Source of the DNA: Actinomycetota bacterium
Lineage (GTDB): Bacteria > Actinomycetota > Actinomycetes > JBDIAW01
Direction of reading: 5' to 3'
Length of the DNA: 64,000 bases
Assembly: GCA_039812585.1 (NCBI GenBank)
Contig: JBDIAW010000001.1
Location: 15,547 to 79,546, forward strand
Program-made: the position numbers and the translations under genes
Shown: piece by piece, positions 2,825 through 51,584 of the stretch
Position numbering within the stretch: position 1 is the first letter of the stretch
Layout of the letters: each line of letters begins with the position of its first letter
Notes under the pieces: model-generated
The model's input: the letters and a program-made list of their open reading frames with translations, nothing else
Databases searched by the model: none
Told to the model about the DNA's origin: nothing

Positions 2825-3538
2825 TTAGACCTGCTCCAACTTCTCCTTCTCACGGGCCGCTAGCCGGGCGCGGGCATCGGCCAACGCGGCCAGGCTCTCG
2901 TGGATCTGCTGGAAAGGCTTACGGTGACACTGCTGATCGAACAGCTCCCCCTCGGCCTCCATCACGCGCAAGCGCGCGTAGTACAACGTGTCCTCGGCCA
3001 AGTGCGCCATGACCACCATGCCCGTCATTAACGGGTGGTTCATGGTGATGTTTTGCCCCCGCTCGCGCCCATGCTCCAACTCGACCGCCAGGGCATAGGC
3101 GAATTCGTCCACATGTCCCAGAGTGGGCTCTCCTTGGAACTGCTTGGGCGTTTGCAGAAAGTCATTAAGCACCTCTGGCGCCGGCTTGCCATGGTTCTTC
3201 GGCTTGAGATGGCCATCGCGGATCAGCGCGGCTAGCAACCCCAGCACCTTGTCAGCCTCACCAGTGGGCACCACGTTAATCCCGAAGGAATCAGCGGGAG
3301 CAATCTCGTCCAATGTCAGTTTTCCCCAGTTGCGGCGAATCCCCAGCGAAGTGCAAAACCTGCCCACTGCTTCCAGGCTCAGGAAGTCGAATTGCACGGC
3401 TTGACCTTTGGTGAACGCGGAGATGGTACGGACCACAGAGTGAGCCAGCACATCAGCATCTGCTGCCTGCTCCACTGCCCGCTGCAGGGATAGCTCCTTG
3501 CGGGTACCGGTGGGTTTTTTCGGAGTGCTGGTTGCCAT
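2825..3538 (-). CDS. Conserved hypothetical protein (237 aa, basic N-terminus, coiled-coil C-terminus)
   Basis: A long ORF with good codon bias on the same strand as its neighbours. I recognised no domain. Confidence 0.45.
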   Translation of the reverse strand: MATSTPKKPTGTRKELSLQRAVEQAADADVLAHSVVRTISAFTKGQAVQFDFLSLEAVGRFCTSLGIRRNWGKLTLDEIAPADSFGINVVPTGEADKVLGLLAALIRDGHLKPKNHGKPAPEVLNDFLQTPKQFQGEPTLGHVDEFAYALAVELEHGRERGQNITMNHPLMTGMVVMAHLAEDTLYYARLRVMEAEGELFDQQCHRKPFQQIHESLAALADARARLAAREKEKLEQV

Positions 3539-3742: not shown

Positions 3743-4957
3743 GTGAAATCCTCACCCTCCAGGTGGTCACCGTGGCGTGTGGTGGCGATGTTCGGCCTCA
3801 CCAGCCTGGCCGCCGACCTGGTCTACGAGGGAGCCCGTTCGGTGTACGGGCCGCTGCTGGCCAGCGTGGGAGCCTCCGCTGTGGCGGTAGGAGCAGTGAC
3901 CGGCCTAGGTGAAGCTGCCGCCTTGGCGCTGCGCCTGCTGTTCGGCCCTTGGGCCGACCGCACTGGGCGTTACTGGGCGCTGACCATCGCCGGCTACACC
4001 CTGACCGTGGTGTCGGTGCCGCTGCTGGCGCTCACCCCTTTCCTCGGTGCGGCGGGGTTGACGGTCGCGGCCGGGCTCATCCTGCTCGAGCGCACGGGCA
4101 AGGCAATACGCTCCCCAGCTAAGTCGGCGTTGTTGGCGCAGGTGGCCCAGCAGGTGGGCCGGGGTCGCGGCTTTGGTGTGCACAAAGCGTTGGACCAGCT
4201 GGGAGCCTTCGCCGGTCCTCTGCTGGTTGCTGCCGTTGTCGCCCTCACCGGAGCGCTGTGGACCGGGCTGGCCGTGCTTGCCCTACCCGGCATGGTCGCC
4301 GTGGTGGTGCTGTTGGCCACCCGCGCCCACGCTCCGGCCCCTCCCGCCGCCGCTGGGCCGGGCCGCTCCTGGTGGGCGCAGGTGGCTGGGGCTGACCTGC
4401 CCCGGGCGTTCTTCTGGTTCGCGGCTGCGGCAGGATTGATGACCGGTGCTCTGGTGACCTTCGGGCTGATCGGCTACCACCTGGTGGTGGCCGGATTAGC
4501 CTCCCCGGCGGTGGTGCCCGTGGTGTACTCCGCCGGGATGTTGGCCGAAGCAGTGGCCGCCCTGGCCGTAGGGTGGCTCTACGACCGGATAGGCCCGCGC
4601 GTGCTTTTTGTGGTGCCCGTGTTGGTGGCCCTGGTCCCCGGCCTGGCTTTGGGCGGTGCGCTGTGGGTGGTGCTGCTGGGGGTCTTGGTGTGGGGTTTGG
4701 CGTTCGGGTTGCAAGACTCCACCATCAAAGCCTTAGTTGCCGACCTGGTGGTGGCACAGCGGCGCGCCACCGCCTACGGAGTCTTCGCCGCCATCCAGGC
4801 AGCTGCGGCCCTCACCGGAGGGATCCTCGCCGGCTGGCTCTACGCACGCTGGCTGCCCGCGCTGGTGATCACCGTCGCCATCAGCCAAGTGGTTGCCGCT
4901 GCTCTGCTGGCCAAGGCCCTGCGAGAGGGCAGCCAATCTGCGGATCGTGGGAATTGA
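3743..4957 (+). CDS. MFS transporter
   Basis: The 404-aa product has ~12 predicted TM helices and an MFS-like loop 'GRGRGFGVHKALDQLGAFAGP'. It uses a GTG start. Confidence 0.7.
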   Translation: MKSSPSRWSPWRVVAMFGLTSLAADLVYEGARSVYGPLLASVGASAVAVGAVTGLGEAAALALRLLFGPWADRTGRYWALTIAGYTLTVVSVPLLALTPFLGAAGLTVAAGLILLERTGKAIRSPAKSALLAQVAQQVGRGRGFGVHKALDQLGAFAGPLLVAAVVALTGALWTGLAVLALPGMVAVVVLLATRAHAPAPPAAAGPGRSWWAQVAGADLPRAFFWFAAAAGLMTGALVTFGLIGYHLVVAGLASPAVVPVVYSAGMLAEAVAALAVGWLYDRIGPRVLFVVPVLVALVPGLALGGALWVVLLGVLVWGLAFGLQDSTIKALVADLVVAQRRATAYGVFAAIQAAAALTGGILAGWLYARWLPALVITVAISQVVAAALLAKALREGSQSADRGN

Positions 4958-5018
4958 GTTTCCACATTCCCTGCCTTTTTGGGAGTTGCAGGATCGATCA
5001 TCTTACCTATGGTTAAAA

Positions 5019-6146
5019 TTAAAGCGAAAAGTAGGGAGATTCCATATAGTCATCCAAGCATTTCATCCATAAAACACTTGCTTTACGTCCCCACATTGCC
5101 TCGACTCTACTCGTGACTTTTTGGTCTGGATTAACTATAATCATTTCTTTTCTAAACTTCGAGAATTCGATTACTTCATCCATAAAAACTTTAAAATGCT
5201 GGTCACCACTAGGAAATGAGTACCCTATAAATACAATGCGATCGGATTGCTCAAGTGCAACTTTTGCCTTCCCCCAAATCGTTGCAAATGGCTGGTCATT
5301 AAATTTTTTAATCTGAGATGGTGCGATAAGTAAGGGGAGATATCTCGAGCATCTTTTGTAGGTAGTGGTTAAACTCCCGCCAACTAGTCTTCGATACCCG
5401 GTGTCATCGATAAGCAAGCCACGTGAACCATCTTCCCATTCAACATTAAACCAAGTAATACAGCCATGCAACTTTAATACCTCTACTGTAGTTTCGTCAT
5501 TGCAAAAATATGAGTAATAATCTTTGCGGCTAAAGTACGGAAGGGGTCCAGAGCATTCAATCAGAGCAATGTCATCGAACTCAAATCCATAACAACACTG
5601 CCTTTTCCAGCGATAAATTGCAGGAGGTAGTGTCAGTCTGAACTTGTCAGGATGGTGCTTGTATAAATCAATATAGGGTTCTTCGTAGCATTTTATCCGA
5701 GTAGACAGCTGGGACTCTATGAGCCTTTCAAGTACGGTATCGTAATTGAAAGTAATCACTGGTTCATTCGAACGAATGATAGACTGGGCTAAACGACTCG
5801 CATTACTATCTTCGGTGATGTTTATTCTCCCAACCAATTGTCCTAAAAGATGGACTGCTTGGAGAAAGATCTGATATTCTTCTGGATTATAACCGAAGCT
5901 TGTGGGATCAGATGGCATATCTAGCCCAGTAAAAAATTTTTCTAGGTTTAAAGTTTTCCCTTTAAGTAGATCTCTATAACTAATGTTCCATTTATTGCTA
6001 ATATACTGATCGAGTCCAGATCCTTCAAATTCTGGGTTTTCTTTGACCACATAATTGAAAAAATTGTCCGAAACGAATGCTTCGATGTACTGCTCATGAG
6101 GGTGTTTACGAAATGCCTTATTAAAACCAGCGCCCAGTACGTACAT
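5019..6146 (-). CDS. SIR2_2-family (ThsA/DSR-like sirtuin) NADase-domain protein, stand-alone, ~375 aa
   Basis: Three SIR2_2 motifs occur in order: 'YVLGAGFNKAF' (GAG nucleotide-binding loop), 'VITFNYDTVLE' (TNYD motif) and 'KLHGCITWF' (catalytic HG), plus 'RIVFIGYSFPSGDQHF' (the VGFSF motif of ThsA). The gene is ~37% GC in a ~67% GC genome. The ATG at 6146 lies 2 nt after the dnaB stop. The longer tracked ORF (to 6470) overlaps dnaB and is not believed. Confidence 0.6.
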   Translation of the reverse strand: MYVLGAGFNKAFRKHPHEQYIEAFVSDNFFNYVVKENPEFEGSGLDQYISNKWNISYRDLLKGKTLNLEKFFTGLDMPSDPTSFGYNPEEYQIFLQAVHLLGQLVGRINITEDSNASRLAQSIIRSNEPVITFNYDTVLERLIESQLSTRIKCYEEPYIDLYKHHPDKFRLTLPPAIYRWKRQCCYGFEFDDIALIECSGPLPYFSRKDYYSYFCNDETTVEVLKLHGCITWFNVEWEDGSRGLLIDDTGYRRLVGGSLTTTYKRCSRYLPLLIAPSQIKKFNDQPFATIWGKAKVALEQSDRIVFIGYSFPSGDQHFKVFMDEVIEFSKFRKEMIIVNPDQKVTSRVEAMWGRKASVLWMKCLDDYMESPYFSL

Positions 6147-6147
6147 C

Positions 6148-7560
6148 TTACATCCCTGCGGCCATATCGACGAAGCGGGAGTAGTGGCCTTGGAAAGCAA
6201 CGGTGATGGTGTCGGTGGGGCCGTTGCGTTGCTTGGCAACGATGAAGTCCGCCTCCCCGGCCCGGGGTGATTCTCGGTCGTAAACATCTTCGCGGTGCAG
6301 CAGAATGACCACGTCAGAGTCCTGCTCGATACTGCCCGATTCGCGCAGGTCAGAAAGCATAGGTTTCTTATCGGCGCGCTGTTCGCTGGAGCGGTTGAGT
6401 TGGGAGAGCGCCACGACGGGGACGTCAAGCTCCTTAGCCAGCAGCTTGAGCGAACGGGAGAACTCGGCAACCTCTTGTTGGCGTGATTCCACCCGCTTTC
6501 CGCTGCTCATCAACTGCAGGTAGTCGATAATCACCAGCTTGAGGTCGTGGCGCTGCTTGAGCCTGCGGCATTTGGCGCGAATCTCCATCAGCGACATGTT
6601 GGGGGAGTCGTCGATGAACAGCGGCGCGTTGGATACCTCCCCCATGCGCTTGGCCAGCTTGTTCCAGTCTTCATCGGTCATCGTGCCCGCACGCATGTGT
6701 TGCAGCGGCACTTTGGCCTCAGCCGACAGCAAACGCATAGTGATCTCATTGCGGCCCATTTCCAAGCTGAACACACAGGTAGGCAAGTTGTTTTTCACCG
6801 CAGCGCATCGGGCAATATCCAAGGCCAGGGTGGATTTACCCATCGATGGGCGGGCGGCTATAACGACCATCTGGCCCGGATGCAAACCGTTGGTCAGCTT
6901 GTCTAAGTCGGCAAAACCGGTAGGCACTCCGGTCATCGCCCCACCCCGGGAGCCGATGGCCTCCAGCTCGTCGAGCGCACCTTCCATGATGGCTGACAGG
7001 GGCTGGTAGTCCTCGCTGTTGCGTTGCTCAGTGACCGCATACATCACCGACTGGGCGGCATCCACCAGGTCGGTAGCCTCCGCCCCATCGGCGGAGTACC
7101 CCATCTGCACGATGCGGGTGCCAGCGTCCACCAGTCGGCGCAGCAGAGCCCTCTCACTGACAATGCGGGCGTAGTACTCCGCGTTGGCCGCTGTGGGCAC
7201 CATGGAGATCAACGTGTGCAGATAAGCTGCGCCGCCGATGCGGTTGAGTTCTCCACGCTTGGTCAGCTCGGCACTGACGGTGATGGGGTCCGCCGGTTGG
7301 CCTCGAGCGTAAAGATCAGTGATGATCTCGAAGATCAGCTCGTGGGCTGGGATGTAAAAGTCGCTGGAGTGCGTGACCTGCACGACGTCGGCGATGGCGT
7401 CCTTACTCATCAGCATGCCACCCAGCGCGGACTGCTCCGCGCCCACATCTTGGGGCGGAGTGCGGTCATAGGAGGGGCCCTGCTGACTGGAGGTGCCACT
7501 GTCGTTGGAGTGTTGCGGCCGTTGCGGCAAAGAAGTGACCGACATGGGCTGCCTTTCCAC
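6148..7560 (-). CDS. dnaB: Replicative DNA helicase DnaB
   Basis: A full-length 470-aa product with Walker A 'GARPSMGKST', the DnaB N-terminal domain and conserved rplI-dnaB synteny. No intein is present. Confidence 0.95.
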   Translation of the reverse strand: MERQPMSVTSLPQRPQHSNDSGTSSQQGPSYDRTPPQDVGAEQSALGGMLMSKDAIADVVQVTHSSDFYIPAHELIFEIITDLYARGQPADPITVSAELTKRGELNRIGGAAYLHTLISMVPTAANAEYYARIVSERALLRRLVDAGTRIVQMGYSADGAEATDLVDAAQSVMYAVTEQRNSEDYQPLSAIMEGALDELEAIGSRGGAMTGVPTGFADLDKLTNGLHPGQMVVIAARPSMGKSTLALDIARCAAVKNNLPTCVFSLEMGRNEITMRLLSAEAKVPLQHMRAGTMTDEDWNKLAKRMGEVSNAPLFIDDSPNMSLMEIRAKCRRLKQRHDLKLVIIDYLQLMSSGKRVESRQQEVAEFSRSLKLLAKELDVPVVALSQLNRSSEQRADKKPMLSDLRESGSIEQDSDVVILLHREDVYDRESPRAGEADFIVAKQRNGPTDTITVAFQGHYSRFVDMAAGM

Positions 7561-7924: not shown

Positions 7925-7970
7925 CCTTAAAAGCCACTGGCCTGCAGAGCAGGAGCTCCACAGGCCAGTG
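7925..7970 (-). terminator. Putative intrinsic terminator/attenuator hairpin downstream of rplI
   Basis: A 10-bp inverted repeat (cactggcctg ... caggccagtg) with a 16-nt loop is followed on the minus strand by a U-rich 'cuuuuaag'. It lies between the rplI stop and the dnaB promoter region. Confidence 0.4.
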
Positions 7971-7987
7971 ATCCAACACTTACGCAG

Positions 7988-8443
7988 TTAGACCTTTTTT
8001 GCCGCACTCACCTCGATCACCAGCGAGGTGGTCACCTCGGGGTGCAGGCGCACACTCACCTCGTGGCGCCCGAGCGTTTTAATGTGATCTGGCAGTATGA
8101 CTTGGCGTTTGTCGATGGCGGCCCCCAAGGTGTCATTGATGGCCTGAGCCACATCGGCTCCAGTAACCGAGCCAAACAGCCGCCCTTCACCACCAGCGCG
8201 CATGGTGATAGTCACCGTGCGGCCCTGCAGTTGGCTGGCCATCTCAGTAGCCTGCTCGCGGTTACGAATCTGGCGAGCCTTACGGGAACGGTGCAGATCC
8301 GCGACCTGCTTTTCCGCACCACGGGTCCAGCGCATCGCCAACCCGCGCGGCACGAGATAGTTACGAGCGTAACCGTCTTTGACGGTCACCACTTCGCCCG
8401 AGTCGCCCAGGCGCTCCACATCGTGGGTAAGAATTAGTTTCAT
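7988..8443 (-). CDS. rplI: 50S ribosomal protein L9
   Basis: 'MKLILTHDVERLGDSGEVVTVKDGYARNYL' is the canonical L9 N-terminus. Confidence 0.95.
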   Translation of the reverse strand: MKLILTHDVERLGDSGEVVTVKDGYARNYLVPRGLAMRWTRGAEKQVADLHRSRKARQIRNREQATEMASQLQGRTVTITMRAGGEGRLFGSVTGADVAQAINDTLGAAIDKRQVILPDHIKTLGRHEVSVRLHPEVTTSLVIEVSAAKKV

Positions 8444-8477
8444 CGTTACTCTCCTTGACCTACGTCGGCGGGCCGGG

Positions 8478-8720
8478 TTAGTGGGCGGACCCGGTGTAGG
8501 ACAGCAGCGCCATTTCGCGGCTGTTCTTCACGGCTTGAGCAATGTCTTTCTGATGCTGCGTGCAGTTGCCCGTCACCCGGCGAGCGCGAATCTTGCCCCG
8601 ATCGGAGATGAATTTGCGCAGCAGCCCAGTGTTTTTGTAGTCGATCGGTTCGCCGGACTTGCAGAACTGACACGGCTTGGTGCTGCGCACCAAGGGTTTG
8701 GGGGGTTGTTTGTTAGCCAT
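8478..8720 (-). CDS. rpsR: 30S ribosomal protein S18
   Basis: The 80-aa product has the S18 signature '...CQFCK...IDYKN...LRKFIS'. Confidence 0.95.
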
Positions 8721-8749
8721 GGAAATCCTCGTTTCAGATCAGTTGCTCA

Positions 8750-9244
8750 TTAAAAGGGGGGTTCATCGTAGGAGGGTGAGGCAGCGGCACCCACTCCAGC
8801 TCCAGCCGGGCTAGGAGCAGGAGTAGCGCTAGCCCAAGGGTCGTCCATCGCGCGGTTCCCCTCGCCGGCACTGCTGCGGCCAGTCTTATTGACCTTGGCG
8901 GTGGCGTTGCGCAGGCTGGGGCCGACATCGTCGACTTCCATCTCGAAAACGGTGCGTTTCTCGCCTTCCTTCGTTTCGTAGGAGCGCTGCTTGAGTCGAC
9001 CGGTCACGATGACGCGAGTACCACGTTGCAGCGATTCAGCCACATTTTCGGCGGATTGGCGCCACACGTTACAGGTGAGAAACAGGCTGTCGCCGTCTTT
9101 CCACTCGTTGGTCTGGCGGTCCAGGTAGCGCGGGGTGGAAGCCACGCGGAACTTGGCCACTGCCTGACCAGTGGAGGTGAAACGCAGTTCGGGATCGTCG
9201 ACCAGATTGCCGACCAGAGTGAGGGAGGTGTCACCGGCTGCCAT
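8750..9244 (-). CDS. ssb: Single-stranded DNA-binding protein
   Basis: An OB-fold N-terminus '[27 protein letters not shown]', a Gly/Ala-rich linker and an acidic C-terminal tip '...DEPPF'. Confidence 0.95.
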
Positions 9245-9283
9245 AGTGATGTCCTTTGGTGAGAGGGGCGGGCATGACCAGCA

Positions 9284-9574
9284 TCAGCGCTGGTCGGGAC
9301 GCAGAAGCTTGGTACGCATCACAGCCTCGTTCAGACCTAATTGGCGGTCCAGCTCAAGCACGACTTCTGGTTGAGCAGTGAGGTTGACGACGGCATAGAT
9401 TCCTTCAGACTTCTTGTTGATGTCGTAGGCCAGCCGACGCCGACCCCACACATCCACCGAGTCCACCGTGCCGCCGCCTTTGCGGACAACATTGAGGAAG
9501 GTATCCAACGACGGGTTCACCGAACGGTCATCCACATCGGGATCAAGGATGATCATTAATTCGTACTGACGCAT
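9284..9574 (-). CDS. rpsF: 30S ribosomal protein S6
   Basis: The internal start '[13 protein letters not shown]' is the canonical S6 N-terminus and is preceded by an AGGAGG Shine-Dalgarno. The tracked ORF extends to 9688 but that upstream part is not S6-like. Confidence 0.9.
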
Positions 9575-17463: not shown

Positions 17464-19983
17464 CTACCCACCCCCAGCCTGTTGACCTGGTTTGGGCTTA
17501 GTACTGCTGGTCGTGGTAGTCGGCAGGGTGGGTAGTGAGGAGCTTGAAGTAGAGCTGGTGGGGGTGGTCGGCTCGGTGGTGGGATCCGTCGATGTGGGGG
17601 TGGTCGGCAAAGTGGGAAGGGTGGGTTCCCCGGTTGGCAACGTGGATGCTGTGGGGGTATTGGTGGCGTTAGGATCGCTGGGATCGGTGGGCTGTCCACT
17701 GGGCGGTGCTGGGGGGGCAGTGACCGGAGGAACGGTCAATCCATCTGTGGAGCGGGCAAACTCCACTTTAGGGATGAGGTTTTTGTTGAATACTTGCAAC
17801 ATGTAGTTATACCAAATCTTTCCCGGCAATCCCCCACCGTAAAAATTGGCATAACCTCCCACTCCATTGAGGGATCGCAAGGTTGCATTACCTTGTGCAT
17901 CAACGCTCTCTCCATAGAAATTCACTGCCGTTGCTATCTTGGGAGTAACCCCCACATACCAAGCACTCTTATTATCTTGGGCAGTGCCGGTTTTCGCCGC
18001 TATCTGCAAGGTGCCTGGATCGTTTAAGGAGGCAGCTACTCTGCCAGTGGCGTACGGTTGGGTGGCTACCCGGTTCATGACGAACAGAACATCGGCGCAA
18101 AGATTACCTGCGTTCTCTTTACTGAGATCGCTAAATACTGGCTTTGCCGAGTCAGGTCCACGGTAAACCACCGTTCCATTGGGGGTTTGCGCCTCGCGGA
18201 TGAGATGGGGCTTGGCGCGTTGGCAACCCGCAGCAATAGAGGCATAAGCATTGGCCAAATCTATAGGCCGCACGGCTGCCGACCCTAAAGTCATGGTAGC
18301 TTCGGCGTTGAGCCCTCTGGCCAGATTTCGGGTAATACCAAGGTCTTCTATCGTTTTTCTAATTTGATCGAATCCAACGTGCTGAGCGATATCGACATAG
18401 GCAGTGTTAATCGAGCGTTCAGTCGCCTCGACGATATCCACGATTCCATATTTACTTGCTGGCCCATCGGTGGCATTGTTTACAGTACGCTCGGGATCTT
18501 TAGGATTGCCTGTTTTAATGGTCAACGGTGCATTGCCATTCCATCTCTTATCCCAGACGTTGTATTGCTTATCTTTCAATCCGGTCAGCATGGTAAAAGG
18601 TTTGAAAGTCGACCCCGCCTGGAGATGACCATCCATAGCCGAGTTGAATTGCACCTGCTTGTAATCAGAGCCCCCATACATGGCCAATACAGCCCCGCTG
18701 CCGGGCTGTATGGAAACCAATGAGGCGTGAACCTTGGGGTCCTTTTTTTGAATGGGCTCATAGAGATTTTCCATGGCTCGATTGGCTTCTTCTTGTAACT
18801 TCTTATCGAAGGTGGTGTAGATCCTCAGACCCCCACCATCAATGAGCTGTTCAGATACTCCACTATCAGCCAGCTCCTTACGTATAGCAGCATATAAGTA
18901 CCCATTAGGTCCACTAAAGTCTTGCATGGTAGAGCGATACGGCTCAAACTTCGGTAGTTTTTGCTTCGCGCGATCAGCAGGAGTGAGCCATCCATGCTCC
19001 ACCATCTTATTCAGAACATCATTCCATGCGAACTCGGCGCGTACCATGCGCTCTTTATGAGCGATAGACGTTTCTCCTTCTTTAATATCTTGAGTGTAAA
19101 GACCTGGGGATCGAATCAGCACCGCCAGATAAGCTCCTTGAGCCACAGTTAATTTACTGGCTGGGCATTTGAAATAAGCCTGAGCAGCTGCTTCGATACC
19201 CCATGTGCCTCTCCCCCAGTAGATAGCATTAAGATATCGCTCGAGAATTTGCTCTTTTTTGAGCTTACGGTTCACTTTCAATGCTAACAAAAACTCTTTA
19301 GACTTTCTTTTCAATGTTTGCTCAGACCCCACATAGACGTTTTTAACGTATTGTTGAGTGATGGTAGAACCACCCTGCTGATCCCCGCCTCGAAGGTTAT
19401 TGATCACAGCTCGGGTTATTCCTCGAGGGGACACTCCGCTATTGTCCCAGAACGTAGTATCTTCTGCAGCAATGACTGCGTTTTGTACATGCTTGGGAAC
19501 CTGATCAAGGGTAATACTGAAGCGGGTTTTAGTTCCCAAAATACCCATTTCCGAGTTATCGCCCCAAAAAACTTTGGTCGCCTGTGCTTCAGAATCTTGA
19601 TCAGGCTTAGGCAAGGGAGTGCGCGCGTAAGCGACGGCAAAAGCAACGACCCCAAAAATAATCAAAGCGCTAACAGCCAACGTGCCGTATTTAACGAAAA
19701 GACGTAAAACATCTTTCCAGGTCTTGTGGGGACGACCTGGGCGTCGAGCCGAAGTACCTGATGCAACTCGGGCCCCATAGACCGTCCCCGGGCCACTCCC
19801 GGTAGAAACGCCGGGACGCGGGGGGGGAGTTGGGGTGACGGGTCGACCCATGCCCCCGGGGCGTGCCGGTGCGCCACTGCCAGGAAGAGAGGGCCACTGA
19901 GGTTGCCTGGCGCCGCCATCACCCCCCGAACCTCCCGCACCGGGGGGAGGGCCTGGTGTTCCCATCGAGTTATCCACGCACAA
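17464..19983 (-). CDS. ponA: Class A penicillin-binding protein (transglycosylase + transpeptidase) with a Pro/Thr-rich C-terminal tail
   Basis: GT51 motifs 'EDTTFWDNSGV' and 'RGGSTITQQYVKN' are present, with the transpeptidase 'STFKPF' (SxxK), 'SIN' and 'KTGT' motifs. The last ~100 aa are a P/T/S-rich low-complexity region. Confidence 0.9.
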   Translation of the reverse strand: MCVDNSMGTPGPPPGAGGSGGDGGARQPQWPSLPGSGAPARPGGMGRPVTPTPPPRPGVSTGSGPGTVYGARVASGTSARRPGRPHKTWKDVLRLFVKYGTLAVSALIIFGVVAFAVAYARTPLPKPDQDSEAQATKVFWGDNSEMGILGTKTRFSITLDQVPKHVQNAVIAAEDTTFWDNSGVSPRGITRAVINNLRGGDQQGGSTITQQYVKNVYVGSEQTLKRKSKEFLLALKVNRKLKKEQILERYLNAIYWGRGTWGIEAAAQAYFKCPASKLTVAQGAYLAVLIRSPGLYTQDIKEGETSIAHKERMVRAEFAWNDVLNKMVEHGWLTPADRAKQKLPKFEPYRSTMQDFSGPNGYLYAAIRKELADSGVSEQLIDGGGLRIYTTFDKKLQEEANRAMENLYEPIQKKDPKVHASLVSIQPGSGAVLAMYGGSDYKQVQFNSAMDGHLQAGSTFKPFTMLTGLKDKQYNVWDKRWNGNAPLTIKTGNPKDPERTVNNATDGPASKYGIVDIVEATERSINTAYVDIAQHVGFDQIRKTIEDLGITRNLARGLNAEATMTLGSAAVRPIDLANAYASIAAGCQRAKPHLIREAQTPNGTVVYRGPDSAKPVFSDLSKENAGNLCADVLFVMNRVATQPYATGRVAASLNDPGTLQIAAKTGTAQDNKSAWYVGVTPKIATAVNFYGESVDAQGNATLRSLNGVGGYANFYGGGLPGKIWYNYMLQVFNKNLIPKVEFARSTDGLTVPPVTAPPAPPSGQPTDPSDPNATNTPTASTLPTGEPTLPTLPTTPTSTDPTTEPTTPTSSTSSSSLPTLPTTTTSSTKPKPGQQAGGG

Positions 19984-22648: not shown

Positions 22649-23243
22649 TTGCCTGTGGATTACCGGGTGGTGTTGGGTGCGCTGGCAACTGCTGTGGCTG
22701 TCATCGGCTACCTCCCGTATTGGCGCAACATGGCGCTGGGGCCGCACCAAGCCTCATGTTTTCAGCTGGTTAGTGTGGGCTGTTCTCACGACCGTGGCGT
22801 GTGCTGGGCAGATCACCGAGGGGGGTGGTCCTGGTGCATGGGTCACCGGTTTCACCGCTCTGGTGAGTTATGGCATTTTTTTCTTTGCATTGTTTCGTGG
22901 CGAAAAGAACATTACGGTGACCGATTGGCTGTGTTTACTTGGCGCAGCTGGGTCAATGGTGGCATGGTGGGCTACTCATGGCCCCTTACTAGCTGTCATT
23001 CTTATTACTATTATCGACGCGCTTGGGTTTGCTCCAACATTTCGGAAATCTTTTTACTCTCCTGACGAAGAAACGGCTTTAACTTATGCCCTCAGTGCGT
23101 TGAAGTTTATTCTGGCCATTATAGCCTTGCGGAACTTTACCGTTGTGACATGGCTTTATCCCGCATCTTTAGTAGTGATGAACGCTGGGTTCGTGGGAAT
23201 GGTTATGCTTAGGCGACGACAACTCCAAGGACACTCACCATGA
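22649..23243 (+). pseudogene. Small polytopic membrane protein, apparently frameshifted (frames starting at 22649 and 22677 join near 22740)
   Basis: Frame A gives a TM-like 'MPVDYRVVLGALATAVAVIGYLPYW' then nonsense. Frame B gives nonsense then four TM-like segments. A +1 shift at a G4 run near 22746 would yield one ~200-aa membrane protein. The 3' half is low-GC. Confidence 0.35.
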
Positions 23244-23480
23244 AACCTTTGCACCTGCCCTACTCGGTTGTTCTCATTGCCTGAGATGGCACACTCACCG
23301 ATACTCTTCCGGTATGGATCGAAGGCATCCAATCAACCTTGGCTCGATTGGGTGTATCCGCTAGTCAGCAACACATAGCTGGTCAATTTGGAAACATTGT
23401 CGGAGAAATAAACCTTGGCCTACCCAAAGAAGCCTTTCCTGCCTACCGCGACGCGCTCATGATTGGCGACACGGACAAGG
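23240..23480 (+). pseudogene. HAD-superfamily hydrolase remnant (motif I fused to motif IV, in-frame stop, internal deletion)
   Basis: It translates as 'MKPLHLPYSVVLIA*DGTLTDTLPVWIEGIQSTLARLGVS...AYRDALMIGDTDKA', which parallels the N-terminus and C-terminus of the intact HAD gene at 23576 ('LPYRAALIDWDGTLAQTLQAW...', 'AVMIGDSDKD'). A TGA replaces the first Asp of DxDGTL and the central ~100 residues are missing. GC is ~48%. Confidence 0.5.
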
Positions 23481-23484
23481 CGTC

Positions 23485-23559
23485 AGGTTTTGGGTTGATG
23501 TTTGTGCGGTTTTAGCGCGCGCAAGCGCCGCTAAAACCGCACAAACATCAACCCAAAAC
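23485..23559. repeat. Perfect 32-bp inverted repeat (hairpin) with 11-nt loop
   Basis: ggttttgggttgatgtttgtgcggttttagcg (23485-23516) is the exact reverse complement of 23528-23559. It is AT-rich for this genome and lies between the HAD pseudogene and the intact HAD gene. Confidence 0.85.
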
Positions 23560-31604: not shown

Positions 31605-32060
31605 TAAGGAGACGTCATGCGTGGCTTCCGTCGTTACTAATCCACAACCATCTTCACGTAGGGCGGTCCTCTCACTCACCGAGGGACCGCCCTATGGCTT
31701 GAGCGGGTAGTTAACAGTCGCCGGCTCCACAAAGAGCAGCCACATTCGTGACAAATCCTCCATAGCTCCTTCACAAACAGTTACCACTCGCTACAAGGCG
31801 TTTCGGAATATCACCAAGTAGTGGGCGTGTCGCCAGACCAAGGTCTAACTTCCCTAGGCACACCGGCCCCGCTAACGGTTAGATGGAGGAGGCAGGCAAC
31901 CGCCTGACTTCCAGTACATCTCCCAAGGAGTGCATCATGCGTGGCATCAAGCTCCGTGGCATCAAGCTCCGCTAACCCCGACGCGTTTAACTCGTTCGGC
32001 TTAACAGTTTGGCTGGTCCCCTACCGATGAAGTAGGAGGCCAGCCAAACTGTTAAGGGGG
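31605..32060 (+). promoter_or_regulatory. Leader region of the GGDEF/EAL gene: two SD-preceded mini-ORFs (MRGFRRY*, 31617-31640; MRGIKLRGIKLR*, 31937-31975) plus strong hairpins (about 31659-31694 and 32001-32055)
   Basis: Both mini-ORFs begin ATGCGTGGC and sit 5-6 nt after AAGGAG. The second contains a 15-nt tandem repeat 'cgtggcatcaagctc' x2. A 16-bp perfect inverted repeat 'ttaacagtttggctgg...ccagccaaactgttaa' ends 11 nt before the GTG start of the downstream gene. Confidence 0.3.
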
Positions 32061-32066
32061 GTACAC

Positions 32067-34166
32067 GTGCGTCGTTCTACCCTCACAGCTTTTTGGACAA
32101 TCGTTGCCGCCGGTACGATATCTGGCATTTGGCATTTCGTTTCTGTAGATCTCAAGCAACATTACGATCCTCTGGTTGTCATATGTTTAACGTTAGTTCT
32201 CATACTCTCGGAGCTATTTCCAGTAGAACTTAAGCGTGGAAGCAAAAAGGTCAGCGCACTTACGCTATCTAATGCGTTTATCGTCGTGCTTATTATTATG
32301 GGGCCGATTTGGCTATGCGCTTTCGCACAATTAATTTCCGAGATGATCAACCAAGTTAAAGAGAAATACAGACTAACAGCTAGCTTGTACAACGTTGCCC
32401 ATGTAATACTGGCGGCCGTCATCGCTTCGAATTGTTACCGGTGGGGTGAGGAAAACATTGTCCAGCTTCAAGGTGGAAATGTTTCCTGGGCGTTAATCTG
32501 GCTTATGCTTGTGGGCACATTCTACACAGCGTTTAGTTCAATGCTTTCAATTGTAGTAGGTGTGCTGGACTCCAAGATGAACTTAAAGGGTAGTTTTATT
32601 ATGGCGAAACAAGCCTACGGATACAGTCAGGCTATTGAAATATTGCTGATCCCGATAATTGTTGCCCTTGTAAATTACTGGCCTCCTACTTTGGTTTTCG
32701 TAGTTGTACCTTTGGCATTTGCGTCGCGGTATAATAAACTTTCAGCACAATTGACCACTTCCTCCATGCATGACCAAACCACTGGACTTCCTAATCGCCA
32801 TACGGTCGAAGAACAGTTTCATGAGACTGTTCAAAGTGGTACTCAAAGGTTAGCTGTTATTGTCGTGCAAATTGACAACTTGGGAGATATGACCCGAGCA
32901 ATGGGGCACCAAGCGGGAGATCAATTAATGTGCGATATTGCTGCTCGCTTGAATTCGGTGACGCGGCAAGGCACGGACATTGTCGGGCGCCTAGGGAGCA
33001 GCCGATTTGTCGTTTTAGCCCCTTTAGAAGAAGGGGTGGAAAATCCTCCAGATGTGAAATCAATTGGCGATCGTCTGTTGACCTCCCTGCGGGATGACTT
33101 TCGCTTGCAAGGGGTGCGCGTCAGTGTGTTGGCGACCGCCGGTGCCAGCCTCTACCCTGACCACGGCCAAACTGCAAGAGAACTGCTCCCCAAGGCGGAG
33201 GCAGCCATTCTCGACGCACCCCGCGGCCAGACCAGCCTGCACGACCCAGCCAACGAGATTTCCTCTCCCGAACGCCTGTCGGTGCTGGGGCAGCTACGCC
33301 ACGCCATCGACAACGGGCAGCTGGAGGTGCACTACCAACCCAAAGTCGACGCCAGCACTGAGATCGTGATGGGGGCAGAGGCCTTGGTGCGCTGGAGGCA
33401 CCCCGAACGCGGCTTGATTCCACCCATGGACTTCATCCCACTGGCGGAAAGTACCGGGCTGGTCAACCCCATGACCTGGGTAGTACTCGATCATGCATTA
33501 TCGCAGGTGAAACGGTGGACCAACCACCATTGGGGTCTGAAGGTGTCGGTGAACTTCGCCGCCGACTTGCTGATTGACAGCGAAACTCCTGCTCTGGTGG
33601 CCCGGGCGCTGCAACACAACCAGGTCAGCGCAGACCTGCTCATCATCGAGGTGACTGAATCCAGCTTGATCAAAGACGCCGCCCTAGCTATGCAGACGAT
33701 CACTGCCATCCGCCACCTGGGGGTGCAGGTGAGCGTCGATGACTACGGAACGGGGTACTCCTCGCTGGCTTACCTGCAAAAACTGGATGCCGACGAGCTC
33801 AAAATTGACCGGGCGTTCGTGAAAAACCTTGGTGCGCCTGACAACCAGCATGATCTGGCCATCGTGGAGACCACCGTCGCGTTGGGTCACCGGTTAGGAA
33901 TGGCCATTGTGGCCGAGGGGGTGGAAACTGCAGTGGAGCGCCAAATCCTGGAGGATGCTGGCTGCGACATGATTCAGGGCTTCTTCTACAGCAAACCGCT
34001 CCCGGGACCTGAGTTAACCGCGTGGTTAGCTCAGCGCCAGGTGCGGCCCCATCTGCCCAGTACCCTGCCCACTGCGCACCAACTCCACCAGATGATCCCC
34101 CAGCAAAATATTGGGCAACATACGGGCGAATGTGAGTCCGCCCCGCTGGGTTTCACGCTGGAATAG
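32067..34166 (+). CDS. Membrane-bound c-di-GMP phosphodiesterase: N-terminal polytopic sensor domain, degenerate GGDEF, active EAL
   Basis: About 8 TM helices occupy the first 230 aa. The GGDEF position reads 'RLGSSRF' (degenerate). The EAL domain has 'GAEALVRWRHP', 'LIIEVTES', 'DDYGTGYSSLAYL' and 'KIDRAFV'. Confidence 0.8.
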   Translation: MRRSTLTAFWTIVAAGTISGIWHFVSVDLKQHYDPLVVICLTLVLILSELFPVELKRGSKKVSALTLSNAFIVVLIIMGPIWLCAFAQLISEMINQVKEKYRLTASLYNVAHVILAAVIASNCYRWGEENIVQLQGGNVSWALIWLMLVGTFYTAFSSMLSIVVGVLDSKMNLKGSFIMAKQAYGYSQAIEILLIPIIVALVNYWPPTLVFVVVPLAFASRYNKLSAQLTTSSMHDQTTGLPNRHTVEEQFHETVQSGTQRLAVIVVQIDNLGDMTRAMGHQAGDQLMCDIAARLNSVTRQGTDIVGRLGSSRFVVLAPLEEGVENPPDVKSIGDRLLTSLRDDFRLQGVRVSVLATAGASLYPDHGQTARELLPKAEAAILDAPRGQTSLHDPANEISSPERLSVLGQLRHAIDNGQLEVHYQPKVDASTEIVMGAEALVRWRHPERGLIPPMDFIPLAESTGLVNPMTWVVLDHALSQVKRWTNHHWGLKVSVNFAADLLIDSETPALVARALQHNQVSADLLIIEVTESSLIKDAALAMQTITAIRHLGVQVSVDDYGTGYSSLAYLQKLDADELKIDRAFVKNLGAPDNQHDLAIVETTVALGHRLGMAIVAEGVETAVERQILEDAGCDMIQGFFYSKPLPGPELTAWLAQRQVRPHLPSTLPTAHQLHQMIPQQNIGQHTGECESAPLGFTLE

Positions 34167-47774: not shown

Positions 47775-48767
47775 TTAACGACGTTTGCTGCGTGTCTTCT
47801 TTTTTGGTTGCTGCCGTGAGGGAGAGTCCTTCTCCTGCGGTGTGGAAGTTTCCTCAGGGCTTACTTCGGAAGACTCCTTCTCATCGCGTTGAGCTCGCTG
47901 CTGAGACGTTACCCGCGAAAGGCTAAAACGACGGATACCGGAGGACGAAGACTGGGCGCTCTTAGTCGCTTGCCGTTCAAGATAAAGTTTTTCTGCCTTA
48001 GAACCAGGTGCGGGTAGACGGTGAATCACCACCATTTGCTGTCCCAATGACCACAGGTTGGTGGTCAACCAGTAAACGAGAACACCAATAGGAAAAACAA
48101 AGCCGGAAAGACCGAAAATAATCGGCATCACATACATCATTATTTTTTGCTGTTGAGCAAACGATCCCGTTAAAGCAGCTTCAGGCATATTCTTCATGAT
48201 GAGTTGCCGCTGCTGGAAGAACGTAGAAGCCGTCATAGTAACGATCAGAGTGGCGGCTACAATCTTGGCTGATAAAGAGTGAGTTTGAGTAAAAGTATCA
48301 AAAAGTTTAGCCCCAAAAAGGTGCGCATCTAAAGCCTGAGTTACTTTTTCGTGAGTCATGAAACCACGTGGATGGTTTTGTGATATACCCTTCAACACCA
48401 TAAATAAAGCAAAGAAGAACGGAGACTGAGCTAAAAGTGGTAGGCAGCTCGTGAAGGGGTTTGCTTTCCTTTCCTTATAGAGTTCCATTAATTTTTGACT
48501 TTGTAGCTGCCGATCATGTTTATATTTTTGTTGGATTTTTTTCACCTCAGGCTGAATAAGCTGCATAGCTCGTTGAGCCTTAATTTGTTTAACATAAAGG
48601 GGTATCAAAAAGGTCCGGACAACGAGCACTAGGCCAATAATGCTCAGGACCCACGTGACCCCCCCATTGTTAGGTAAACCAATTGAAGTAAAAATCCAAT
48701 GGAAGGATAACATGATAAAGGAAACCAATTTATACAATGGCTCCATGAGAAAATGAAGATTATCCAT
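47775..48767 (-). CDS. yidC: Membrane protein insertase YidC
   Basis: TM helices, the conserved 'PFTSCLPLLAQSPFFFALF' region and a basic C-terminal tail are present. GC is lower than the genome average. Confidence 0.9.
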   Translation of the reverse strand: MDNLHFLMEPLYKLVSFIMLSFHWIFTSIGLPNNGGVTWVLSIIGLVLVVRTFLIPLYVKQIKAQRAMQLIQPEVKKIQQKYKHDRQLQSQKLMELYKERKANPFTSCLPLLAQSPFFFALFMVLKGISQNHPRGFMTHEKVTQALDAHLFGAKLFDTFTQTHSLSAKIVAATLIVTMTASTFFQQRQLIMKNMPEAALTGSFAQQQKIMMYVMPIIFGLSGFVFPIGVLVYWLTTNLWSLGQQMVVIHRLPAPGSKAEKLYLERQATKSAQSSSSGIRRFSLSRVTSQQRAQRDEKESSEVSPEETSTPQEKDSPSRQQPKKKTRSKRR

Positions 48768-50086: not shown

Positions 50087-50126
50087 CGGCGTGTGAGTGA
50101 GCCTCCGATCTGAAGGGAAGGGCCCA

Positions 50127-51584
50127 ATGACTCAAGGTTCTGAAGCCACTCAAGTGTCGTTTTCTCAAGCGTGGGATGCAACCATCGAAGCGTTGGCAGG
50201 TGATAACTTCCCTGCGCAATACCGAGCTTTTTTACGACTAGCCCAACCCATGGGGCTCATTGACGACACTGCACTGATCCGTGTGCCAGACAATTTCACT
50301 AAAAACAAACTGGAAACAGATCTAAGGGAGTACCTTACTTCTGCATTGGCCAAGACACTGGGCCATCCCGTGCGCTTGGCTGTCACAGTCGATGACTCCC
50401 CTACGCGATTCTCGCCTGTTTTAGAGGTTTGTCAGTCAGATGGACTAACAGACAAGCCCCTACCGACTCCCCTACCTAGTGACGATGATGATCCACCTAC
50501 TTTGCCTTTCACCACTCTCGATAGCGTTCCCACCCCTGACCCTGGTGACTCATCCCAACTGAACCCGCGCTACATCTTCGACACCTTTGTGATCGGCGCC
50601 AGTAATCGTTTCGCTCACGCTGCTGCTATTGCTGTTTCGGAGGCGCCTGCTAAAGCCTATAATCCATTGTTTATTTATGGTGATTCTGGTTTAGGTAAAA
50701 CCCACCTTTTACACGCTATCGGATACTACGCACAAAGCCTCTATCCAGGGATACAGGTGAGATACGTTAGTTCTGAAGAGTTCACTAATGACTTTATTAA
50801 CTCTATTCGTGATGACCGAGCTTCGGTTTTCCAACGACGCTATCGTGATTTAGACATTCTTTTAGTGGATGATATTCAGTTCTTAGAGAATAAAGAACGA
50901 ACCCAGGAAGAATTCTTCCATACCTTTAATACTTTGTACAATGCCAACAAACAAATAGTGATCTCTAGTGATCGGGCTCCCAAACAGCTCGTCACGTTGG
51001 AGGATCGGCTCCGTAGTCGATTTGAGTGGGGACTGATCACTGATGTCCAACCACCAGATTTGGAGACACGTATAGCTATCCTGCGCAAAAAGGCCGTTCA
51101 GGAACAGTTAAACGTCCCTGCTGAAGTCCTAGAATATATTGCCTCTAAAATCAGTACAAATATAAGAGAGTTAGAGGGTGCTCTTATTAGAGTGACGGCT
51201 TTCGCTAACCTCAATCAGCAAGGGGTGGATTTATCGCTAGCGGAGATCGTCCTCAAGGATCTCATTCCCGACGAGGATGGCCCCGAGATCACCGTAGCGA
51301 CTATCATTGCTCAGACTGCTGCTTATTACGCTCTATCCATGGATGATTTATGTGGAGCCTCACGCTCCAGAACCTTGGTTCAAGCCCGACAAATTGCTAT
51401 GTATCTGTGTCGAGAATTGACCTCACTTTCACTACCAAAAATAGGGCAGCAATTTGGAGGTCGTGACCACACCACTGTCATGCACGCAGACCGTAAAGTA
51501 CGTCAAGAAATGAGTGAAAAACGCTCGGTTTACAATCAAGTCACTGAGCTAACCAATCGCATTAAATCCCAGGCGCGCCAATAA
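50127..51584 (+). CDS. dnaA: Chromosomal replication initiator protein DnaA
   Basis: The AAA+ Walker A '[15 protein letters not shown]', sensor motifs and the C-terminal DNA-binding '[11 protein letters not shown]' are present. An alternative GTG start lies at 50097. Confidence 0.95.

Follow-up and report, generated by a model that had tools for sequence, protein, structure and literature searches.

The closest solved relatives of the protein described here, by profile as well as by fold, are the SIR2 subunits of the SIR2-HerA system (Nezha / GAO_19; PDB 8w9l, 8yhx, 8j4u), in which a HerA gene adjoins the SIR2 gene. The solved SIR2 relatives are NADases kept inactive until assembly, and PsSIR2 alone forms an auto-inhibited dodecamer (PMC11472057). 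In Thoeris, ThsA carries a SLOG (or Macro) domain and a ThsB/TIR gene lies adjacent, while DSR1 and DSR2 are single-gene SIR2 NADase defences of ~1000 aa whose large C-terminal sensor domains bind the phage tail tube protein. SPARSA involves APAZ and a short pAgo, Avs5 (SIR2-STAND) is fused to a STAND NTPase, and KomC (Kongming) acts with KomA/B. To our knowledge, separate sensors are found in all well-studied SIR2 systems, be it HerA, TIR/SLOG, pAgo, STAND or the DSR C-terminus. The initial annotation of the locus studied here held that every known SIR2 defence is paired with a sensor, to which sole-Sir2 is an exception: in this single-gene, CRISPR-supervised system, described in a 2024 preprint, a single ~440-aa protein hydrolyses NAD+ to ADPR in vitro, with a homologue conferring protection on E. 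coli against T2 and T4 (bioRxiv 10.1101/2024.12.27.630466).

Here we describe a 375-aa protein from an actinobacterium, encoded in a 64-kb stretch of contig JBDIAW010000001.1 (hereafter the window), which differs from each of these systems. In contrast to ThsA, it comprises one SIR2 domain, which ends at aa 375 (Pfam, structural model), and its gene lies between dnaB and an MFS transporter gene instead of beside a ThsB/TIR gene. It resembles DSR1/DSR2 as a single-gene system with, by analogy, a putative NADase defence activity, but consists of the SIR2 domain alone. No NTPase domain of the Avs5 kind is present (Pfam), and the likeness to SPARSA is confined to a weak SIR2-domain match (Aga_SIR2, 7.4e-6), with no Argonaute neighbour. 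It shares only 13-17% identity with the SIR2-HerA SIR2 chains, at a TM of about 0.5, and HerA is missing both at this locus and at the 27 loci of the protein's family. Sole-Sir2, in which one small SIR2 protein provides defence without further genes, offers a precedent for the proposed mode of action; compared by description only, it has a C-terminal DSR2-like SIR2 domain and an N-terminal substructure, whereas the window protein has its GAG loop at residue 5 and finds its nearest fold match in the SIR2-HerA type. On balance, we favour the reading that the gene is an intact, horizontally acquired one encoding a self-contained SIR2_2-fold enzyme, most likely an abortive-infection-type anti-phage effector that hydrolyses NAD+.

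Results

An intact foreign gene directly behind dnaB

The gene is an intact minus-strand ORF of 375 aa, read 6146→5019 from an ATG at 6146-6144 to a TAA at 5021-5019 (CDS 5019..6146, stop codon included), as delimited by translation of the window, a Pfam SIR2_2 match, an AF2 model and the open frame. Given the base composition of the region, the frame would be open by chance with P about 6e-12, and the remaining five frames of the gene region contain 16-39 stops each. Gene callers likewise assigned 375 aa to the SIR2_2 gene in three independent assemblies. A 483-aa TTG-started ORF was rejected as the true gene, its extra part being an out-of-frame read through the 3' end of dnaB. We also rejected an assembly chimera, because the DNA of the islet and of both its junctions is 100% identical across contigs from three sequencing runs.

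This single gene occupies a low-GC islet of ~1.2 kb, which extends from the end of the MFS gene to the dnaB stop (4958..6147) and contains no other gene. GC per 50-nt bin is 0.28-0.46 from 4951 to 6150 and 0.58-0.68 outside; overall, the islet has 39-42% GC compared with 60-70% in the flanks. Codon usage is poorly matched to the host, with a GC3 of 0.37 against 0.76 for dnaB, and TTA accounts for 8 of 33 Leu codons as opposed to 23 of 566 in native genes. By composition, the SIR2_2 gene is foreign, an AT-rich gene in a high-GC actinobacterium, and was probably acquired horizontally. This foreign composition, like the mobile-element context of its family (see below), sets it apart from the canonical sirtuins.

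On its upstream side the islet abuts the replicative helicase gene dnaB (6148..7560, minus strand; Pfam DnaB_C 1.3e-109, DnaB 4.1e-34), which by synteny is the last native gene of an rpsF-ssb-rpsR-rplI-dnaB cluster, while the convergent MFS transporter gene (3743..4957, plus strand; Pfam MFS_1 8.8e-25) forms the other boundary. The site belongs to the oriC-proximal core region, surrounded by core housekeeping genes and not by a defence island. For the window's other ORFs, the PADLOC listing (the first 25 of 46 matched families) contained no HerA, TIR or Argonaute model. Neither an integrase nor a transposase was found at the islet, and a search for flanking direct or inverted repeats or target-site duplications returned only short matches at chance level. 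A close relative genome with an empty dnaB-MFS site was not found either, the best DnaB match being 76% identical among the matches listed.

The junction with dnaB, read from the sequence (6144..6157, minus strand), comprises an SD-like AGGGA (6157-6153), the dnaB stop TAA (6150-6148), one G and the ATG, which places the dnaB stop codon 1 nt ahead of the SIR2_2 start. No promoter-like site was found between dnaB and the ATG, and a promoter and terminator scan of the islet gave counts not above those of shuffles. As judged from this layout, the SIR2_2 gene is probably co-transcribed and translationally coupled with dnaB.

A SIR2 fold with an enlarged Asn-to-His module

The initial annotation recognised four SIR2_2 diagnostic motifs, and the translation contains all of them in the right order: YVLGAGFNKAF (aa 2-12), VITFNYDTVLE (130-140), KLHGCITWF (225-233) and RIVFIGYSFPSGDQHF (303-318). 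In agreement with that assignment, Pfam SIR2_2 (PF13289) matches with 33.2 bits against a gathering cutoff of 24.5 (E 6.8e-8), a match that covers only aa 216-343 and profile positions 36-124 of 141. No further Pfam or NCBIfam domain was found in the protein, which, together with an islet of one gene, bears out the annotated lack of a fused partner domain and of a partner gene. An AF2 model built on a 5-sequence alignment was unusable (pLDDT 48.8); the model from a 57-sequence alignment (pLDDT 82.6, pTM 0.85), used instead, has the SIR2 fold, again as anticipated. The narrower label "ThsA/DSR-type" proved imprecise: SIR2-HerA SIR2 proteins are closer among solved structures, and although generic PADLOC SIR2 models match the protein (best 3.9e-11), no PADLOC ThsA or Dsr model does so at E ≤ 1. 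Foldseek E values for matches to the SIR2 domain of DSR2 ranged from about 2e-4 to 4e-3.

In the model, the protein adopts a SIR2 Rossmann-type fold; it has the GAG loop as well as the catalytic Asn/Asp and His, but lacks a zinc module. We scored conservation over 57 sequences, comprising the family and related proteins, and mapped the resulting features to the minus strand, on which all of the following coordinates lie. The NAD-binding loop G5-A6-G7 (codons 6126..6134) is located at the N-terminus, with G5 and G7 invariant and A6 at least 90% conserved. Between strands 1 and 2, the AF2 model places an alpha-helical module (aa 13-128; 5763..6110) with helices at 26-36, 44-53, 57-61, 68-74, 88-106 and 114-126, which is variable within the family (mean top-residue frequency 0.48). 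In the catalytic Asn/Asp motif T132-F-N134-Y-D136 (5739..5753), N134 never varies, and conservation of T132, F133, Y135 and D136 reaches at least 90%; its aligned counterpart in the SIR2-HerA SIR2 chains 8yhx, 8w9l and 8j4u is TTNYD. The enlarged Asn-to-His module that constitutes the family signature (aa 148-222; 5481..5705), recognised by the N-to-H spacing, is predicted with moderate AF2 confidence (block means 58-89) and contains the conserved anchors W180, Y186, G187, F190, D191 and Y211. The catalytic H227-G228 (5463..5468), invariant in the 57 sequences, aligns to the K(L/I)HGS motif of the solved SIR2-HerA SIR2 chains. Next to it, the model and the family alignment define a post-His beta module (aa 234-285; 5292..5447), with predicted strands at 228-237, 242-246 and 265-273, and the conserved Rossmann strand/loop motif G308-Y-S-F311 (5214..5225) has G308, Y309 and S310 invariant.

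The post-His module is the most variable, indel-rich part of the protein (mean top-residue frequency 0.40) and is about 14 residues shorter than in relatives, where 7+7 additional residues follow the positions of window aa 239 and 258. In variability, the Asn-to-His module roughly equals the helical module, and the post-His segment exceeds both; nothing in these data identifies the insertion as the sensor, a role that the initial annotation had suggested for it.

Canonical sirtuin deacylases (CobB, Sir2Tm, Af2 Sir2) carry a zinc ribbon, whereas the window protein has eight Cys and no CxxC pair, consistent with the earlier view that it is not CobB-type; no match to Pfam SIR2 (PF02146) was listed at E ≤ 1. 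Both features argue against an active SIR2-fold enzyme with another chemistry or role, be it one that ADP-ribosylates proteins or nucleic acids (SirTM-like), one that deacylates, or one that serves in regulation or addiction (toxin-like). So do the lack of a macrodomain partner of the SirTM-operon kind and the fact that the closest relatives in sequence and fold are all defence NADases. Deacylation in particular is disfavoured because the zinc module needed for deacetylation is absent from SIR2_2 proteins in general (PMC12700824). We therefore judge an enzyme of this sort to be quite improbable and retain NAD+ hydrolysis in defence as the preferred reading.

A rare family of solo SIR2 proteins

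Sequence comparison places the 375-aa protein in a rare, uncharacterised family of 380-490-aa solo SIR2 proteins with ~34 clusters. An exhaustive search returned 102 cluster representatives at E ≤ 1e-10, mostly of 350-430 aa and matching over their full length, and in a profile search ~34 clusters scored 339-551 bits, their sources being Vibrio, Aliivibrio, a Hodarchaeota MAG and metagenomes. The window protein scores 298 bits against the A2 family profile (members 339-551, next tier at most 206), a value inflated because the protein is itself a row of that profile. Pairwise BLASTP, which is profile-independent, gave E 1e-17 to 1e-42 against seven full-length members. PADLOC matches across the family are weak and generic (best 3e-15).

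At the sequence level, it is the long N-to-H spacing that defines the family. From Asn134 to His227 we measured 93 aa, close to the ~95 aa initially claimed; the core family ranges from 79 to 114 (mode 91), compared with 40-63 aa in related solo SIR2_2 proteins and 49-61 in the SIR2-HerA SIR2 chains, than which the module of this family is a further 30-45 aa longer. ThsA, whose corresponding residues we take to be N112 and H152, would have a spacing of about 40 aa, and the N-to-H segments of KomC, Avs5 and the vertebrate FAM118B are short and without this module. In core-family members the first Gly of the GAG loop lies at residue 3-27, mostly 9. The short N-terminus of the window protein is therefore normal, and an N-terminal truncation through insertion was rejected, as family members likewise start 3-15 residues ahead of the loop.

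Within the family, the window protein is by sequence an outlier or a sister lineage. It is the most divergent member, departing at 18 of the 61 columns with conservation of 90% or more, S229C and N231T beside the catalytic His included, whereas other members depart at 8 or fewer. Such divergence, along with the shortened post-His module, would fit an inert passenger, that is, a recently acquired and poorly adapted gene that is non-functional or unexpressed and decaying, its intact frame reflecting recency only. The unameliorated composition with its frequent TTA codons and the lack of a promoter of its own point the same way, as does the identity of the three assemblies, which leaves no polymorphism for reading selection. 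However, every catalytic and structural anchor residue is retained, zero stops occur across 375 AT-rich codons, and two separate sets of sequencing runs show the locus unaltered. The start codon 1 nt past the dnaB stop and the SD-like AGGGA moreover form a layout permitting expression. An inert passenger thus appears unlikely to us, while deserving real weight, and a working anti-phage effector remains our preferred interpretation.

A tblastn search with the window protein and the Vibrio member P0170 gave no match in sequenced phages and no full-length relative in plasmids, where P0170 had three weak matches, each partial, covering 40-75% of the query at 22-26% identity. A scan of viral contigs revealed two distant SIR2_2 relatives only.

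Genomic contexts without a shared partner

Among 162 neighbour ORFs within 5 kb at the 27 family loci, BLASTP and phmmer detected no conserved partner except a tRNA synthetase pair. No HerA, Argonaute or STAND gene is present in the annotated family contexts. TIR_2 is carried by 2 of 127 family neighbours within 5 kb, and none of the individually annotated neighbours is a TIR protein; ordinary metabolic genes make up about half of the family neighbours. In Vibrio sp. Vb2424, whose SIR2 protein (WP_206946629.1) is better conserved than the window protein, the SIR2 gene resides inside a prophage, in the order integrase, 231-aa gene, SIR2, HNH_2 gene. Other members are located within integrase/resolvase elements, near Mrr and HNH genes, or next to MazE/PIN and HicB or a TPR-DpnII/MboI-like gene, and some follow housekeeping genes (ddl, a glmM-like mutase). 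The GC content of the SIR2 gene is lower than that of the locus in most cases. These contexts, which span prophages, integrase-bearing elements, restriction/toxin neighbourhoods and the ends of housekeeping operons, are best explained by a family that moves as single-gene cassettes.

The initial annotation regarded the gene as either a new minimal architecture or an orphaned effector; as one of a family of solo SIR2 proteins whose 27 loci lack a conserved neighbour, it is neither unique nor obviously an orphan. A subunit orphaned from a two-gene system, SIR2-HerA-type or other, with its partner elsewhere in the genome, would account for best fold and profile matches to SIR2 subunits that are inactive without HerA, and one second-tier solo SIR2 protein, P0188, indeed has an AAA_5/CbbQ_C ATPase gene 20 nt upstream. 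Nevertheless, HerA or a conserved neighbour occurs at none of the 27 family loci, identity to the SIR2-HerA chains is low, the family has a signature of its own in the 79-114-aa module, and the PADLOC listing for the remainder of the 64-kb window (25 of 46 matched families) includes no HerA. We consider this origin very improbable.

HerA and DnaB are both ring ATPases, and the SIR2_2 gene abuts dnaB, with which it is probably co-translated, so that the hexameric replicative helicase could in principle serve as a HerA-like partner or sensor. Yet no helicase recurs near other members at the 27 loci; these follow unrelated genes or sit in prophages, and borrowing of transcription explains the position more simply. 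We rejected a DnaB-SIR2 functional pair as barely credible, and continue with the self-contained effector.

Discussion

From the relatives of the protein and the layout of the locus we infer that it is an NADase acting in defence, that oligomerisation activates it and that the dnaB transcript serves for its expression. Read-through from dnaB would probably reach the gene, with translation at a low level. An infection cue would then switch the protein from an auto-inhibited to an active state, probably via a change in oligomeric state, as in the solved relatives, and Asn134, Asp136 and His227 would hydrolyse NAD+, starving the infected cell and the phage. Because there is no partner, sensing would have to reside within the protein's own variable modules, namely the helical, the enlarged Asn-to-His and the post-His beta modules.

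A bolder and rather unlikely version would combine two propositions. The family would be a fully self-contained sensor-effector NADase in which the Asn-to-His and post-His modules replace separate sensors, and it would at the same time be a promoter-less single-gene cassette inserting exactly at the 3' end of essential housekeeping operons (here behind dnaB; elsewhere behind ddl and a glmM-like gene) and borrowing their constitutive transcription.

The solo SIR2_2 gene is plausibly a variation on known SIR2 defence and not a new principle. For annotation, it indicates that a lone "SIR2 family protein" outside a defence island can still be a foreign, defence-type gene. The recurring position behind housekeeping genes without a mobility gene raises the question of how single defence genes enter core operons and persist there. 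If active, the protein would combine sensing and killing in a single domain of ~380 aa, a very compact form of SIR2 NADase defence, and would provide a simple system for studying how a SIR2 NADase stays off and then switches on without a partner. Its family would then represent a second, structurally distinct solo-SIR2 lineage beside sole-Sir2.

An intact foreign SIR2_2 gene fills a low-GC islet behind dnaB

The open reading frame that the initial annotation had placed at 5019-6146 is intact at these coordinates and lies on the minus strand (ATG at 6146-6144, TAA at 5021-5019). All four motifs quoted for its 375-aa product were found in the translation, in the claimed order. Under the base composition of the islet, such an open frame would arise by chance with a probability of ~6e-12, and each of the other five frames contains 16-39 stops. 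Gene callers chose the 375-aa form in three public assemblies; a 483-aa TTG-started ORF was rejected as only an out-of-frame reading across the end of dnaB. Because the start codons of relatives lie 3-15 residues ahead of the GAG loop, the very short N-terminus (GAG loop at residues 5-7) is typical of the family, and N-terminal truncation was likewise rejected.

The foreign gene fills an islet of ~1.2 kb with a GC content of 0.28-0.46 per 50-nt bin, compared with 0.58-0.70 in the flanks; its GC3 is 0.37 versus 0.76 for dnaB. On its own strand it is preceded by the native cluster rpsF-ssb-rpsR-rplI-dnaB; a single base separates the SIR2 ATG from the stop codon of dnaB (6150-6148), and AGGGA is positioned 6 nt upstream of that ATG. 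On the other side, a convergent MFS transporter gene ends 61 nt downstream. Neither mobility genes nor tRNAs mark the islet, and repeats flanking it do not go beyond short matches expected by chance. Contigs of runs SRR19427084 and SRR10090775/8 reproduce the islet and its two junctions at 100% DNA identity, which excludes an assembly chimera. The 64-kb window is an oriC-proximal core region (dnaA, dnaN, gyrA/B, parA/B, gidB, yidC, jag, murJ), and the best DnaB relatives (Kineosporiaceae, Streptomyces, Cellulomonas) among the matches listed from the genome collection are only 76% identical. Two genes from the islet, a 237-aa protein (2825-3538, minus strand) matches DUF5661 (4.9e-7), with the same synteny kept in Logan contigs.

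Low GC is also seen in two core genes, yidC (47775-48767, minus strand; GC 0.44, GC3 0.45) and dnaA (50097-51584, plus strand; GC 0.48, GC3 0.44), whose neighbours have a far higher GC3 of 0.74-0.82; low GC alone is therefore no proof of foreign origin here, and the origin-region genes may have an unusual history. Further low-GC patches (0.44-0.52) occur at 17800-19800, 22800-23500 and 31900-33100, some of them within long ORFs (839 aa, 17464-19983; the beginning of a 699-aa ORF, 32067-34166). The ORFs at 22677-23243 and 19318-19707 gave no Pfam match.

The predicted fold is closest to SIR2-HerA proteins

A Pfam SIR2_2 match of 33.2 bits (gathering cutoff 24.5), confined to the C-terminal half of the protein, bears out the domain identification. 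NCBIfam gave no match, nor did a single-sequence search of PDB sequences, and PADLOC returned weak matches only, to the generic "SIR2" and "Aga_SIR2" models (best 3.9e-11). The label ThsA/DSR-type is imprecise: the PADLOC ThsA and Dsr models were unmatched even at E<=1.

The AlphaFold2 model, built from a 57-sequence alignment, is confident (pLDDT 82.6, pTM 0.85) and predicts a SIR2 fold. Three SIR2-HerA proteins led the model comparison, followed by Af2 Sir2 (14.3), KomC (13.4) and ThsA (13.0) and, further down, canonical sirtuins (11-13), SirTM (11.6), Avs5 (11.4 and 10.7) and FAM118B (10.2). Foldseek again placed SIR2-HerA proteins at the top, then DSR2, and the same three SIR2-HerA proteins were the best matches in a profile search of PDB sequences. 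Relatives of the protein are not CobB-type and it has no CxxC pair; SIR2_2 proteins generally lack a zinc module (PMC12700824). Given the HMM match, the non-CobB relatives and the predicted fold, the proposal that this is a SIR2_2 protein and no housekeeping deacetylase stands, and we regard the structural and family assignment as very secure. With defence NADases as its nearest relatives in sequence and fold, a SIR2-fold enzyme of different chemistry is an improbable reading.

A rare solo family with an enlarged Asn-to-His module

A word-indexed search of 5.8 billion proteins yielded eight matches only. When 1.84 billion cluster representatives were scanned exhaustively with HMMER, 1,499 reached E<=1e-3 and 102 reached E<=1e-10; apart from the protein itself, P0009 (30% identity) alone fell below 1e-30. 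A profile search delineated a core family of ~34 clusters (339-551 bits, 380-484 aa), annotated "hypothetical" throughout and including Vibrio sp. Vb2424, Aliivibrio sp. 1S128 and a Hodarchaeota MAG; a second tier consists of 350-360-aa solo SIR2_2 proteins with <=206 bits to the family profile. The window protein is a member of this solo family, scoring 298 bits to a profile whose alignment itself includes it. It is an outlier or a sister lineage, changed at 18 of the 61 columns of >=90% conservation (others <=8), S229C and N231T among them, and missing ~14 residues after the catalytic His. Every catalytic and structural anchor is retained, including the conserved NAD-site triad. An inert passenger, recently acquired, would fit the divergence and the foreign composition of the gene; set beside these anchors, it is an unlikely explanation, though one to be taken seriously.

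Several core-family members on metagenome contigs (L105, L106, L111, L113, L114, L122) reach 473-489 aa through a C-terminal extension not present in the window protein; it may be a sensor or oligomerisation piece added in a sub-lineage. A distant relative of the window protein (22% identity) with a C-terminal extension of ~130 aa, a 486-aa SIR2_2 protein with the motifs ILGAGFS, ITFNYD and KLHGSLNWF, is encoded on a high-GC viral or prophage contig (L090, IMGVR_UViG_2926353618_000001, 7962-9422).

The long Asn-to-His spacing previously pointed out is real (93 aa) and is what sets the core family apart (79-114 aa, mode 91). The second tier has 40-63 aa, and the SIR2 chains of SIR2-HerA (n = 3), counted from alignments, 49-61 aa; the "insertion" thus adds length to a stretch that the closest relatives have in expanded form already. 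W180, Y186, G187, F190, D191 and Y211 are conserved anchors within it. The suggestion that this module is the sensor was not supported, as nothing marks it out: anchors aside, its variability equals that of the helical module (mean top-residue frequency 0.48), and the family varies most in the stretch that follows the catalytic His (0.40).

Family loci carry no consistent partner gene

As claimed initially, the islet has no partner gene, and no neighbour is conserved across 27 core-family loci. Among their 162 neighbour ORFs within 5 kb, no similarity between loci was found beyond one pair of class II tRNA synthetases, and no HerA, Argonaute or STAND genes occur at these loci. TIR_2 is carried by two neighbours within 5 kb; no TIR protein is found among the individually annotated neighbours, where these two were not located. 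In the window, none of the 25 PADLOC families listed, of 46 matched by the other ORFs, is a HerA, TIR or Argonaute model, and the AAA-ATPase matches all fall on one ORF, probably RecF. From these 27 loci and the 64-kb window, the idea that the protein is an orphaned subunit of a two-gene system, as its SIR2-HerA resemblance could suggest, is highly improbable. In a separate second-tier locus (L102, 5175-7065), an AAA_5/CbbQ_C (MoxR-like) ATPase gene ends 20 nt upstream of the solo SIR2_2 protein P0188 (354 aa, Asn-to-His 61 aa), followed by a PIN toxin pair; ATPase and SIR2 may form a two-gene system distinct from SIR2-HerA.

Family contexts are of two kinds, and in most loci the SIR2 gene has a lower GC than its surroundings. 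The first kind is mobile or defence-like: integrase/resolvase elements, Mrr and HNH genes, MazE/PIN plus HicB, and a TPR-DpnII/MboI-like gene. In a prophage of Vibrio sp. Vb2424 (GCA_023810865.1; L096, 7823-12026), an integrase, a 231-aa unknown gene and the SIR2 gene (387 aa) are followed, 143 nt downstream, by an HNH_2 nuclease gene, and in a sister strain (L097) this element includes, farther on, genes of the SduA_C (Shedu-like) and AAA_15 families. P0009, the closest relative, likewise has an HNH_2 gene, at a distance of ~4 kb. In the second kind, found in three unrelated genomes, the SIR2 gene sits straight behind a housekeeping gene of the same orientation, and mobility genes are absent. 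The gene in front is ddl (L098, 8840-11173; 22-nt gap), a glmM-like phosphoglucosamine mutase gene (L108, 2774-5417; 122-nt gap) or dnaB (window, 5019-7560; 1-nt gap). These placements suggest single-gene cassettes that borrow housekeeping transcription. With ddl and glmM-like genes in the same position, a role coupled to DnaB is hardly credible, close as the two genes are.

A candidate single-gene defence NADase

As a candidate for single-gene defence the gene is credible, and its product is somewhat more likely than not to be a defence NADase. Its novelty had been overstated, since solo SIR2_2 proteins abound among known sequences and one solo-SIR2 system has already been validated: in sole-Sir2, one small SIR2 protein hydrolyses NAD+, and a homologue shields E. 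coli against T2 and T4 (bioRxiv 10.1101/2024.12.27.630466). What appears new is the family itself, rare, unannotated and of a layout that differs from the one described for sole-Sir2, together with its enlarged Asn-to-His module and its habit of occurring as a lone cassette behind housekeeping genes. PADLOC 2.0 has no specific model for the core family, and tblastn with two members (the window protein and Vibrio P0170) matched nothing among the collected phages and nothing at full length among the plasmids.

By analogy with the nearest characterised proteins, Asn134, Asp136 and His227 would hydrolyse NAD+ to ADPR and nicotinamide, with the enzyme kept off in a resting oligomer and freed upon infection. 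On its own, PsSIR2 forms an auto-inhibited dodecamer, which is activated by HerA (PMC11472057), and ThsA, KomC, Avs5 and FAM118B function as filaments (PDB titles). As no promoter-like site was found between dnaB and the SIR2 gene, expression probably relies on dnaB read-through. TTA accounts for 8 of its 33 Leu codons versus 23 of 566 in native genes, and this poor codon match would hold protein levels low. Such low expression would fit a potentially toxic NADase.
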